Shown here in pieces: positions 12,001 through 17,445 of a stretch of 27,871 bases of DNA; within the stretch, counting starts at the first letter, position 1; every line of letters begins with the position of its first letter. Source of the stretch: a virus (Duplodnaviria > Heunggongvirae > Uroviricota > Caudoviricetes); IMG/VR virus record IMGVR_UViG_2563366804_000001, positions 1 to 27,871 of that record. One strand, given 5' to 3'. Made by a program: the position numbers.

Positions 12001-15000
12001 GTACGGCACTGGCTAAATCCCTTGAGCATGATGCTGAATACACGACGCGAAAAGGTCTGCTGATATACAAAATCTGGAATGAGAATTTAACTCGCGACCC
12101 TGATTTGGTGATGTTGCGTTCCGGTGAATTTTCTAAATTACCAGTGCGGGTTTCATTTTGTCCGTTCTGTGGTGAAAGTCTGAAAACGTGGGAGAACAGA
12201 AATGAATGAAATTAGAGAAATACCAGTAGTACGTGATGAATATGGCTGCTGGACGCATCCTGAATATGAAAAATTCTGTGATGGTAGAGAACTTATTTCA
12301 ACGGAAGAGTTTAACGCCTGGATGGAGGAAAATAATCTTCAATACGTCCTCTGCTTCAGAGATGAAGGATGTGCTGACCTTGATGCGTGTGATGCTGATA
12401 TTTCTGCATGGGAACCGGAACGACCAGAGGGCAATGGATGGTTTATTGGTTCAATACATGACACCGAAGATGGCCCGGTTTGTGTATGGCTGAGAAATAA
12501 GGCCGAAGCATAAAGGCTATAAACCGACTAACAACTAAATACTGAAGATTTAAATCAGAAACGATTTTTATTAAATCCTTAACCGGAGGGATTCTGCACC
12601 CTCAGAACATCAGGAGGCCGTCTGAAAGGGCGGAACAGCTAATGCTTACGTTGAAACATTTTATCGACATACCAACATGGTTAGCCGTCATTGCTTTTGT
12701 TAAAATACACATCCACTTTTCTGTGCAATGTTTAACCACTGGTCATATCAAATGGCATTCATGCGAACCATGATATAGAATCATGGCTTGAGAGAGTCGA
12801 TGAAAGCGCAACTATGGTATGAGAGACATTGATGTAAGAAAGGCTGTGCATGCCAAGATTCTGAGAGATCATCATAAAGATCCTGACACCCTAATCATTG
12901 ATGAGTTTACGATGAATCTAGGGGCTAGCAGAGCTGATATAGCAGTGATCAATGGGCTTATACATGGTTATGAGTTGAAGAGCAAGAGTGATAACTTGCT
13001 CAGATTACCAGCGCAGGTGCAACATTACTCATCAGTGATGGATAAAGTAACGTTGGTTGTCTCTGATTGCCATCTTTATGATGCTTTAAGCATAGTTCCA
13101 TCATGGTGGGGGATAAAGCAAGTTACGCAAGGTGCACGGCAAGGTATCCATTTAAAAACAATTCGAACTAGCAAGTTGAATCCACAAGTGGACAAACTTT
13201 CCTTAACAATGCTTCTTTGGAAAGATGAATTGCTTTCCCTATTAAGTGATGTAGGGGAGCTACAGAATTTGAAAAATAAACCTAAACGCGTCTTATGGTC
13301 AAAACTCGCCAATAGTATGGATGTTGGCGAGCTTCGTGAAGCTGTTCGAGTTAAACTTAAAGCCCGTAAAGAGTGGCGAGTTGCTCAATAACCTTAGTTA
13401 TGTGATGGTTTTGCCCAATCCTACGCCATACCTCTGGGCTACCAAATTTATAGTTACCAGAGGGATTGGCTTTGTAGGCTTGATACTCGTTTGCATAATA
13501 TTCTATGTCTCTATCTCCCGCACAGAATGTAGGCCCTGAATATTCTCGATGAGCAAGAATATCCTCACTATGTTTACCATATTGTTCATAACCAAAGCGA
13601 TTAGCTACTCTTCCTCGAAATACCCAAAAGTCATTATCTCCAGAGTATCTGACGCTGGCAGATACGCTAGGGAATCGCGTCGAAAGCCTATTAAAGTCGG
13701 GGTGCTGTACTCCATAATCACTATAAATCACATTTCTGGCAAGTTCTTTTCTATTCATTAAACTCTGCCATAAAATCCACTCGATTCGAGGTTGAGAATA
13801 TAGACCAACAGAAATATCACTGAGATCTGTAGGAAATGAACCCCCAGAAAGAATCACTTTTCTGTATTCATTGAGGTGCGCCAGATTGTTTATCAATCCC
13901 ATTGCCAAAGTATATAGTTCGCCGGAATTAAGTTTATCCTCGGTTAACTCATCTCTTAAGTCAATAATTATATCAATATTTGATAAAGGAATTCCCAGAT
14001 GATTAATGTAATGCGTTATTAATTGTGGGTTAACCAGATCTAACGTGGTTAATCTCAAGCATATTTCATTCTGCATTAATTCATCAATCGCTCTTTTATA
14101 GTTAGATGGGCGAGTTGGTGAACTGACAGGAATAACTCTTATCCCCATATCTCTAACTTGATTAACCGCATTTATTATAGGGTAATGATCTTCAGGAGAA
14201 ATAAAATGCTCTTCAATTAATAATCCATCAATATAAACACCTTGCATATCTGAGCAAGATTTTGAGACTTTCTTTCCGAACTCTATAAGAGTCTCGTTAT
14301 AACTCTTTAAGGCAATACCTGAATCAGGGTCAATTGGCACTGGTTCAATTTCGAGTAATGGCAAAATTTTTGATTTCTTTTCAATGGATAGCTGCGATAA
14401 AGCTGATAACTCAGAACGTTTCGCTTTCAGAATAGGAATATATGAAATTGTCATGTTAATACCTTATACAGAATCAATTAACAATTAATGGTTCTTCGGA
14501 CATTGAAATTTATATCGCAAAAATTGGCAAACTCTCCTCGACTACTCACTTGTGGGTATCCTGGCGTAAAAGGAATGACTTGGCAATACCCGGTGTGATC
14601 ATAAGTCATTGAAAATGATCATTTTTATCAGTCTTTCTTCCATGATGAATGCTAATGCCATTTGATTTGTTGAGGTGAAAACTGTTAAAAATCAAAACGA
14701 TGTAATTGAAATGAACGTTCGGTAGCATTCACGCTTTAAATGTTTCTTTTGTGCTGATTGGATGAATTTTGGTCACTTATGATGAGAGATGTTGCAGGAA
14801 AAGAAGTTGGCATTGATCTATTGGATAGTTAGAATTGCTGCGGGTGCTTGAGGCTATCTGCCTCAGGCATGAACACCAAAAGGCAGATAGAGAAAAGCCC
14901 CAGTTAACATTACGCGTCCTGCAAGACGCTTAACATTAATCTGAGGCCATATCTATGCGACACATAGAGATTAGCCTCTTACGGACCGAAAGGTCAAGGA

Positions 15001-17445
15001 GAAGCAGGCTATGAAGCAGCAAAAGGCGATGCTAATCGCCCTGATCGTCATCTGTTTAACCGTCATAGTGACGGCACTGGTAACGAGGAAAGACCTCTGC
15101 GAGGTACGAATCCGAACCGGCCAGACGGAGGTCGCTGTCTTCACAGCTTACGAACCTGAGGAGTAAGAGACCAGGCGAGGGAGAAATCCCTCGCCACCTC
15201 TGATGTGTCAGGCATCCTCAACGCACCCGCACTTAACCCGCTTCGGCGGGTATATTTTATCTGTGAATATTTTTATAAAAATAATGCCCACGCACAGCAT
15301 AAAACAAAAAGTATTACAGATAAAAAAGGAACGTAATGTGCAGATTTGTTGTTTTCCATATTTACTCACCTTAATATGATTAATCCTGATAGGGTTGTTA
15401 TTTCAGCGATTTTCAAATGAGATATTATGGTGATCTGGTAGATTTGCATAACATTAAAATTTAATTTGTTTAACCGCTTTTAATAATAAGCGTTGTTTTT
15501 ATCCCAGCAACCTGCTGTTTGGTTTTTATTCCATCAATGTGGGGGCTTTACACTGGAATCAGTTTATTTATACTTTATACGTCAGCCTGAACAACTGGCA
15601 TCTGCTGCACTGCGCCATCGAGAGATTGAGAAATGGCGTATATACAACTGGTCAAACAAACCTCTTCTGGTTTACTTCTCCCGGCGACGCCGGAGAGTTG
15701 CGATTTTCTGCATCAAATCAAAATAGGTGAGTGGATACACGCAGACTTTAAGCGTGTGCGTAACTACGCATTCCACAAGCGTTTTTTCAAACTCCTGCAA
15801 CTGGGATTCGATTACTGGACTCCGGTCGGGGGGGCGATCACGCCTCGCGAACGAGAACTGCTGTCTGGTTTCGTTGATTACCTGTGCGAATCAGTTGGTC
15901 GGGAACACACGCCAGCCCTGAGTGATGCCGCAGAGCAATATCTGAATACAGTTGCGACACGCAGAACCCGGGATACGGCATTGCTAAAGTCGTTTGAGGC
16001 TTTTCGCGAGTGGGTAACCATTCAGGCTGGATTTTACACCGAACATTTTTATCCGGACGGTAGCCGCGGGCGTCGGGCAAAATCTATCGCTTTTGCGAAT
16101 ATGGACGAAACCGAGTTTCAGCAGGTTTATAAATCTGTTCTGAATGTGCTGTGGAACTGGATTCTGTTCCGTAAATTTTCCTCTCCGGAACAAGTCGAAA
16201 ATGTGGCCGCGCAGCTGCTGGAGTTTGCGTAATGGTGGATTTACGTAAAGCGGCGCGGGGGCGGATGTGCACCGTCAGAATTCCTGACTACTGCAATCAC
16301 GATCCGGAAACGTCTGTGCTGGCGCATTACCGACTGGCGGGAACGTGCGGAACAGCGACAAAACCACACGATATGCAGGCGGCGATTGCCTGTAGCTCAT
16401 GCCACGATTTAATCGACGGGCGGGTAAAAACAAGCGATTACACCAAAGAAGATTTACGCCTGATGCATGCAGAAGGTGTTTTTCGCACGCAAGAAATCTG
16501 GAGAAAGGAAGGTTATTTATGATTTACCCAACGAATACAGGAAAAAGCGGAGAACATCTTCGTCTCACCACGCTGGAAAGTGTCTGGATTCAGGGAAAAC
16601 TACGTATGTGGGGGCGCTGGTCGTATATTGGCGGCGGCAGGTCAGGGAATATGTTCAACCAGTTGCTGGCGTCAAAAAAATTGACGAAAACAGCAATCAA
16701 TGAAGCCCTGCGCAGGATGAAAAAAGCAGGAATAGAGAAGCCAGAGCTGGAAGCATTTTTACGTGAGATGATCAACGGGAAGCAAAAGAGCTGGCTGGTG
16801 CATTGTACTGATGCAGAGGCGTTATGCATTGATCGGGTGATTAGTGAAGTGCTGGCAGAACACCCAGGATTGATTTTTATCCTCCGGCAACGATATGAAG
16901 GGAGGGGGATGACTAAGCGAAAAATGGCTGAATTGCTAAATGATGCACACCCTGAGTGGTGTTTTAGCACATGCGAAAAGCGAATTGCTAATTGGTTGGC
17001 TGTTGCTGAGTATGCGCTATACGTTCCCATGCGAGAATCATTCGCTCAAAAAATAGCTTGATTTTTTACGCATAAACTGCTTCAATTCCGGTATGCTTCG
17101 CAAAGCTGTATCGCGAGGCGAATAGCAGTTTTGAACATCTAAAGACCCCGCTTAATGCGGGTTTTTTTATGCCCAAAAACGAAGTAGTGCGTTAAAATGT
17201 GATGGTCGGGAGTATACAGACTTTTATATAGCACTGCGTAAAAATCAATTTATCCGGGGTAAATGTCAATTTGCTTATAAAAAAACAAAAAGATAAATTT
17301 ATAGCAATTGTGTTTCTTTGGGTTGAAAGTTTTAATGTCGTCAGTATTATCTGAAGCGGTTCTGAGGAGGGGGTTTCCATTGCTCGGCCACGATACTTCC
17401 GAGGAACCAATTAACGCCGACTTAGCTCAGTAGGTAGAGCAACTT

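Follow-up and report, generated by a model that had tools for sequence, protein, structure and literature searches.

An AT-Rich Beta/sce7726 Gene Pair in a Mosaic Cargo Slot of a Rac-Type Prophage: A Two-Gene Form of the gop-beta-cII/PD-lambda-2 Family

The Locus

The window analyzed here, the whole 27,871-nucleotide stretch of the Caudoviricetes record IMGVR_UViG_2563366804_000001, is a Rac-type lambdoid prophage (intR..recET..kilR) adjoining ttcA. Its genes run from intR, xisR, ralR, recT, recE and kilR through the repressor/cro-like genes, ydaT, the replication genes and DUF1627 to DUF977 (lygF). They resume, after an interval rich in adenine and thymine (AT-rich), with DUF1367, YbcO and a Q-like DUF1133 gene, followed by two tRNAs and the tail-fibre genes. 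The interval between DUF977/lygF and DUF1367 is the subject of this report. At its center lies a convergent, overlapping pair of genes encoding a predicted nuclease of the sce7726 family and a Beta family protein, and this pair stands next to a hok/sok toxin-antitoxin locus. Positions 11500-16600 are 100% identical to Escherichia coli O27:H7 B4103-1, and the source strain of the window may be a close relative of that isolate. Elsewhere the window differs from B4103-1 (L001), the coordinate offset shifting by 7 and then by 6 bases. The features on which the argument rests are listed below, with guanine-plus-cytosine (GC) content where it matters.

11955-12513, plus strand: two small phage genes of 84 and 103 amino acids (rac21/rac22 of phage Rac-SA53), matching phrog_4030 (3e-39) and phrog_1372 (8e-55), function-unknown in PHROG
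12570-12633, plus strand: conserved 64-bp linker with two hairpins (GAGGG..CCCTC; CCGCCC-GAAA-GGGCGG) and AGGAGG
12634-14829: mobile two-gene cassette, the AT-rich core, delimited by composition, prevalence and breakpoints
12819-13391, plus strand: gene for a sce7726 / phage-P4-cII-like protein of 190 amino acids, a predicted PD-(D/E)xK nuclease
13357-14454, minus strand: gene for a Beta family protein of 365 amino acids, a predicted triosephosphate isomerase (TIM) barrel
13357-13391: dual-coding overlap of the convergent 3' ends, 35 bp, defined by the stop codons
14455-14829: AT-rich tract upstream of beta, 375 bp, 34.9% GC, part of the E. coli cassette
14830-15251, plus strand: hok/sok type I toxin-antitoxin locus, 52.6% GC
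15252-15632, plus strand: AT-rich non-coding leader of the DUF1367-YbcO-Q module, 32.8% GC, a second small variable slot
15633-16232, plus strand: DUF1367 protein, NinB/Orf-like, the right conserved flank (Pfam 5e-96; phrog_319, 'NinB/Orf recombination mediator', 4.5e-69)

A Mosaic Slot of Four Modules

Module boundaries were placed by BLAST of the window against twelve related prophage loci, and prevalence was counted in 5,426 complete E. coli genomes at a coverage of at least 80%. Breakpoints recur at 11955-11963, 12570, 12633/12634, 14829/14830, 15251 and 15272/15568/15633, and the segments that they delimit each have a prevalence of their own. The rac21/rac22 genes with the linker (11955-12633) are found in 240 genomes, the cassette (12662-14829) in 93 (1.7%) at an identity of at least 99%, the hok/sok block (14830-15251) in 4,020 (74%) and the AT-rich leader (15252-15632) in 1,157. 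The whole arrangement from 11500 to 16600 is present in 23 genomes only.

The same positions hold different genes in other prophages. Between lygF and hok there may be a NACHT protein, an AAA ATPase (an annotated 2,397-bp gene), QueH, TehB with a hypothetical gene, S-adenosylmethionine-dependent methyltransferases, or gene sets with DUF7167 or with DUF4014/DUF551. Between hok and DUF1367 there may be rem, a Doc toxin with a hypothetical gene, a 213-bp open reading frame (ORF) or other small ORFs. The cassette itself lies directly upstream of hok in all five other contexts read, and its left neighbors differ. By PHROG assignment DUF977 is Ren-like and DUF1367 NinB/Orf-like; in position, the slot would then correspond to the ren-ninB junction of lambda.

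These comparisons show, with very little room for doubt, an accessory slot between the Ren-like DUF977/lygF and the NinB-like DUF1367 that is a mosaic of four independent modules. Recombination would remodel the slot at junctions that are short and conserved. Moron or cargo slots of lambdoid prophages are a well-known phenomenon, and mosaicism of this kind is routine; no account of this Rac-type slot (lygF-hok-NinB-like) as a defence hotspot was found in the literature searched. With its boundaries placed to the base pair and hok/sok as an anchor, it could be mined for defence genes like the P2 and P4 hotspots.

An earlier note on this DNA, made by eye from the sequence, had described 12514-15632 as a horizontally acquired moron island holding the convergent pair, a hok-type toxin locus and long AT-rich intergenic tracts. 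All of this content is present (hok lies at 15011-15166), and its character as cargo stands: the central 2.2 kb are rare, mobile and deviant. Like a moron, the cassette is present or absent at a fixed position, where at least seven alternative contents occur, and its composition is unlike that of the neighboring phage genes. What does not stand is the singleness of the island. One 3.1-kb insertion between the nin-like genes and DUF1367 would agree with the low GC of the block, the lowest of its length in the window, and with the accessory nature of everything in it. It is nonetheless highly improbable, as the hok block inside it is at 52.6% GC, its sub-segments occur in 93, 4,020 and 1,157 genomes, breakpoints recur within it at 12570, 12633, 14830 and 15251, and the full arrangement is found in 23 genomes as against 93 for the cassette.

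Similarity to many related prophages is lost at 11955-11963, the end of DUF977/lygF, so variability begins at about 11959 rather than at 12514, and the module directly left of the reported region, which had been taken for the last nin-like genes, is therefore variable cargo as well. Toward the right, hok/sok is normal in GC and so widespread that it is a conserved anchor rather than part of an insert, while 15252-15632 goes together with the DUF1367 module that follows it, whether hok is there or not. Conservation in all related prophages, named in advance as evidence against acquisition, is essentially what is seen for hok; the cassette is neither so conserved nor free of GC deviation.

Composition of the Slot

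Computed values bear out the AT-richness of the 3-kb block, which has 39.3% GC against 47.6% in the remaining window and 46.6% in the window as a whole. It is the lowest-GC 3.1-kb block, all other non-overlapping blocks of this length being at or above 43.2%. The deviation is real but not uniform. Part by part, GC is 39.7% in the left intergenic tract, 40.8% in the sce7726 gene, 37.2% in beta and 34.9% in the tract upstream of beta, then 52.6% in the hok block and 32.8% in 15252-15632. The cassette (12634-14829) is at 37.8%, below the minimum of 41.9% among 107 non-overlapping 2.2-kb blocks, and its dinucleotide-signature distance is 111, a value reached by none of the 107 blocks, whose median is 55. 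GC at third codon positions (GC3) is 0.298 in beta and 0.361 in sce7726, against a length-weighted 0.464 in the other genes. The cassette is the cause of most of the compositional anomaly.

The same composition is seen in other hosts. In four other contexts read the pair is 39-42% GC within loci of 47-53%, as compared with about 38% in the window. The pair is AT-rich in every host context examined, and its AT-richness is therefore intrinsic to the module.

Low GC could also reflect function and ordinary phage mosaicism instead of foreign origin, if promoter, terminator or H-NS-type DNA and the AT-rich small genes of Rac account for it. GC is lowest in the two intergenic tracts (34.9% and 32.8%), 15252-15632 has promoter- and terminator-like sites, and ralR, ydaE, DUF1187 and the repressor/cro-like genes have a GC3 of 0.28-0.33, as low as that of beta. 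Since low GC is common to other small Rac genes, composition alone is no proof of recent foreign origin. Such an account is still unlikely for the cassette. Its coding sequences themselves deviate (GC3 0.30-0.36), no other block matches its dinucleotide signature, its GC stays at about 38-42% in contexts from Serratia, Dickeya and Paenibacillus, only 1.7% of E. coli genomes have it, and it is seen in four distinct phage slots. Promoter-like sites, such as that at 12752-12781 ahead of sce7726, number 9 as against 9.2 in shuffled sequence.

The Convergent Gene Pair

The 190-amino-acid protein matches sce7726_fam at 191.1 bits (NCBIfam cutoff 70) and the PADLOC model 'cll' at 2.4e-28. The catalytic motif E/D...D...ExK lies on a predicted restriction-endonuclease-like fold, as in the PD-(D/E)xK superfamily, and the protein is predicted to be a nuclease of this class. 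Its partner matches Pfam Beta_protein (PF14350) at 178.6 bits against a cutoff of 27. Among PADLOC models it is recovered by PD-Lambda-2_C at 1.7e-41 and 5.3e-38, and by the P4 beta model at 1.5e-4. Beta is predicted to form a TIM barrel with a predicted local distance difference test score (pLDDT) of 92.5. The invariant residues D76, R134, D165 and D246 are located in predicted strands or at their ends, R115 falls just past a strand, and the invariant H351 lies in the C-terminal helix. This placement in the model suggests that Beta may be an enzyme rather than a passive antitoxin.

The 35-bp overlap encodes conserved residues on both strands: the K181-x-R183-x-x-W186 of the nuclease lies opposite the conserved L359...L362 C-terminus of Beta. 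Because the genes overlap, there is no terminator between them. The tract at 14455-14829 is inherited with the cassette up to its right boundary and is not conserved in distant cassettes; its small ORFs (40-43 amino acids) gave no family matches in a PADLOC scan. Terminal repeats and target duplications were looked for at the cassette ends and none were found. A 16-nt inverted repeat (12744-12759/14654-14669, 15 of 16 positions complementary) puts the motif CA(T/A)ATCAAATGGCATT ahead of each of the two genes. It was considered as a shared operator and not adopted, being absent in eight other cassettes and having a rough chance expectation of about 0.06-0.2.

Relatives of the Pair

A survey of 79 beta loci (L021-L099) on one-genome-per-species contigs from more than 15 phyla, scored from stop codons only and not selected for gop, shows how constant this architecture is. 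In 78 of them a convergent cII-like gene lies directly downstream of beta, with an overlap of 23-140 bp (mode 50) between the 3' ends; the remaining locus ends at its contig end. Overlap length modulo 3 equals 2 in 77 of the 78 loci, as it does for the 35 bp of the window. In 47 loci the A and/or B gene of the defence system PD-lambda-2 stands directly upstream of beta, as judged by clustering with two ORFs of locus L040 (2968-6105), where PADLOC strongly recovers A and B and scores the pair as C and 'cll'. The other 31 are bare pairs, and these include all Enterobacterales loci and most of those in Bacillota. The nuclease gene thus accompanies beta almost universally, also beside PD-lambda-2-type operons described as three-gene systems, and loci of that type usually have it as a fourth gene beyond the original description. 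By homology, the bare pair is the apparent constant core common to PD-lambda-2 and the gop-beta-cII system of satellite phage P4.

The genomic settings of the pair vary widely. Homologues of Beta with 58-73% identity are spread across Enterobacterales. The bare pair occupies the gpA-portal interval of P2-like prophages in Serratia and Dickeya, adjoining HicAB, and on a lambdoid contig it adjoins rem and a HEPN-domain gene (a weak Pfam match). In Paenibacillus, a pair has a primase-type mobile element nearby. At the nucleotide level, the distant cassettes are homologous to the window in the two coding sequences alone. When a phage collection was searched with Beta by tblastn, the matches were Rac-SA53 and four records from two Gordonia phages and no others; P4 beta is too distant for this test. 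A diverged E. coli bare pair was also seen between Rz and the terminase gene Nu1 of a lambdoid prophage (L100:3134-4763), with a 206-amino-acid cII-like protein 54% identical to that of the window, a 355-amino-acid Beta and a 59-bp overlap.

Function of the Cassette

By analogy with its characterized relatives, the cassette is fairly likely to be a prophage-borne anti-phage module acting in superinfection defence. This reading draws on the homology of its proteins to components of two validated systems (PMC9122126, PMC9519451), on residence in at least three recognized or typical cargo slots and on intact catalytic residues. The gop-beta-cII system protects against lambda and P1 (PMC9122126), and both the P2 gpA-portal position and the P4 hotspot are slots known for defence cargo (PMC9122126, PMC9519451). 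In a tentative and rather doubtful division of roles, the nuclease would be the DNA-cutting effector and Beta, itself probably an enzyme, would serve as the sensor or regulator. The convergent overlap might couple expression of the two genes via antisense pairing or transcriptional interference, a speculative meaning for its conservation.

Several points weigh against defence, or against these roles. The toxicity of the P4 system maps to Gop (PMC9122126) and that of PD-lambda-2 to B (PMC9519451), and both are absent here. The PD-lambda-2 clone reaches only about 390 bp past gene C. If a cII-like gene follows there in strain ECOR42, the clone defended without an intact copy, which would argue against the nuclease as the essential effector. 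A homologue search of the PD-lambda-2B type, directed at this fourth gene in ECOR42, had no E. coli entry among its best 120. No sigma-70 consensus was found on the minus strand of 14455-14829, from which beta would be transcribed, and no paper was found in the literature that tests the two-gene beta/sce7726 form.

Two other readings were weighed against defence. The pair might be an addiction module of the toxin-antitoxin kind, or serve the phage in repair, recombination or regulation; P4 cII was given its name as a regulator, and the fold of the nuclease is like that of MmcB, a family named for DNA repair. We regard this as rather unlikely, given that the pair recurs in slots for defence cargo such as P2 gpA-portal and the P4 hotspot (PMC9519451), that its relatives are parts of two validated defence systems, and that its sporadic distribution (1.7% of genomes) is unlike that of a core replication function. 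It is less probable still that the cassette is an inactive remnant of gop-beta-cII or PD-lambda-2 whose toxic effector was lost. Such decay would explain why neither Gop nor PD-lambda-2A nor PD-lambda-2B is found in the window and why two short minus-strand ORFs stand where an upstream gene is expected. Yet these ORFs match nothing, both genes of the pair are full length with all invariant residues kept, the cassette is at least 99% identical in 93 genomes, and the bare pair is the form taken by 31 of 78 loci, including every one in Enterobacterales.

The defence reading is accordingly retained, and the combination of mosaic slot, defence cassette and assigned roles is, taken as a whole, likely to be the best explanation of the locus. 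A bolder extension is possible but speculative: the pair would be an autonomous, ancient and pan-bacterial anti-phage module, P4 gop-beta-cII and PD-lambda-2 would be elaborations that bolt toxins onto it, a fourth gene of PD-lambda-2, for the nuclease, would have been overlooked, and the phase-locked overlap, kept in 77 of 78 loci, would be a functional switch between sensor and effector that works by antisense pairing or transcriptional interference. Should the pair prove to be the functional core, how both published systems work would have to be reconsidered. The pair in the window, which lacks Gop, A and B, would be missed by a rule that demands the full set of three named components for either system.

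Linker, hok/sok and Right-Hand Tract

The modules that flank the cassette contain the following smaller features.

12642-12773, plus strand: ORF of 43 amino acids, of doubtful reality (ORF list, junction alignment)
14842-15013, plus strand as reported: sok-family RNA (Rfam RF01794, 108.3 bits against a gathering score of 59)
15011-15166, plus strand: hokD coding sequence (Pfam HOK_GEF, 1.2e-23, 82.9 bits against a cutoff of 22)
15236-15251, plus strand: terminator-like hairpin at the 3' end of the hok block
15475-15492 and 15505-15517: terminator-like hairpins within the leader 15252-15632
15547-15574: promoter-like site within the same leader

The linker matches many genomes by itself. Similarity to the window begins exactly at its first base, 12570, in four loci (L007, L011, L012 and L013), after unrelated upstream genes, and stops at its last base, 12633, in three (L007, L008 and L009), where DUF7167 or DUF4014 comes next. 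The ATG of the next gene, whether DUF7167, DUF4014 or the 43-amino-acid ORF of the window, is 2-9 nt past the linker, and the second hairpin sits between the AGGAGG Shine-Dalgarno sequence and that ATG. In the window, the second stem reads CCGTCT, with two C-to-T changes that preserve pairing as G-U. The linker is a probable boundary for module exchange and a probable translation-initiation region.

The 43-amino-acid ORF has its ATG at the start position of DUF7167/DUF4014 in other prophages, and its center is hydrophobic. It has no family match in PADLOC or PHROGs, and distant cassettes have no equivalent of it ahead of their cII-like genes; for these reasons it was rejected as a Gop-like small membrane protein. 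Rac-SA53 has the insertion sequence IS1 within it, with a target duplication at 12654-12661.

The hok block opens at TAGAAT and closes at the terminator-like stem in every comparator. To judge from its sequence features (Hok coding sequence, sok-family match and 3' hairpin), the hok/sok locus is complete; the RF01794 match is reported on the plus strand, the orientation of the model relative to Sok itself being unchecked. With regard to the mok reading frame and the fbi/tac long-range folding elements of hok mRNA, the 3' hairpin was the one element seen, and no in-frame upstream extension of hok appears in the ORF list. Two Shiga toxin-producing E. coli loci, of serogroups O111 and O121 (L010:5428-6641; L011:5347-6509), have IS1203 or IS3 in the hok coding sequence or leader next to the same cassette, so that hok is inactivated there and the cassette is intact.

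No gene is annotated in 15252-15632 in any genome listed (1,157 holders), and this tract is joined to DUF1367 without hok in locus L003 and three further matched genomes (H7-H9). Elsewhere in the prophage, a RalR/RalA type I toxin-antitoxin locus lies near the left end (1557-1928), with the RalA small RNA scoring 218 bits in Rfam and ralR annotated in a genome that matches the window. Directly downstream of the Q-like DUF1133 gene, two tRNA genes occupy 17416-17566 (tRNA-Thr and tRNA-Gly in the matching genome). Past these are a frameshifted tellurite/colicin-resistance gene and a truncated holin, and the late region looks partly decayed.

Comparison with Known Systems

As a slot, the locus resembles lambdoid morons and the P2 gpA-portal and P4 psu-int hotspots (Rousset 2022; Vassallo 2022). 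Presence/absence polymorphism, a fixed position between conserved phage genes, deviant composition, sharp conserved junctions and varied cargo that includes NACHT and AAA ATPase proteins are common to all. They differ in that no promoter-plus-terminator pair belonging to the cassette itself could be demonstrated. The hok module likewise conforms to the loci of plasmid R1 and of Qin (hokD/relF) in its coding sequence, sok-family match and 3' hairpin, and HokD is its RefSeq name. In K-12 genomes the match is limited to the 3' 255 bp of the block, whereas the copy in the window retains the upstream sok region.

The sce7725/sce7726 pair (NF033831/NF033832) shares one member with the cassette, the 190-amino-acid protein being sce7726_fam. 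The partner in the window is Beta and not sce7725_fam, an assignment rejected at 12.3 bits against a cutoff of 60, with a match to residues 5-39 only.

PD-lambda-2 (Vassallo 2022, PMC9519451) is closer. Its component C belongs to the Beta family, as the PADLOC score of the window protein attests, and in the wider family PD-lambda-2-type A-B-C loci continue into a convergent, overlapping cII-like gene. The system was published as three genes, with no nuclease mentioned (PMC9519451). Its A component (HigB-like) and B component (Xre helix-turn-helix with an ImmA/IrrE peptidase) are absent from the window, where no PADLOC match to either was found among ORFs upstream of beta.

P4 gop-beta-cII (Ghisotti 1990; Rousset 2022, PMC9122126) has homologues of both genes. 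Its Beta is 23% identical over the full length (blastp E 1.7e-8) and its cII (sce7726 / PF26915) 28% identical (blastp E 6e-17). The genes for Beta and cII are convergent in both elements, both pairs occupy a cargo slot of a mobile element, and both are AT-rich relative to the carrier, the P4 block being at 35.9% GC in a genome of 49.5%. The carriers differ, a P4 satellite in one case and a Rac-like prophage in the other. So do the details: P4 cII has 264 amino acids as compared with 190, and the 3' ends of the P4 genes are 27 bp apart where those of the window overlap. In P4, Gop, a toxin of 133 amino acids with two transmembrane segments, is encoded directly upstream of beta. A Gop homologue in the window was rejected after tblastn of P4 Gop against the whole window, which gave nothing below E = 1, and after every small ORF near the pair had been scanned with PADLOC, which gave no match. 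The cargo of the slot is a minimal two-gene form of the known gop-beta-cII/PD-lambda-2 family, and its architecture is unusually conserved.

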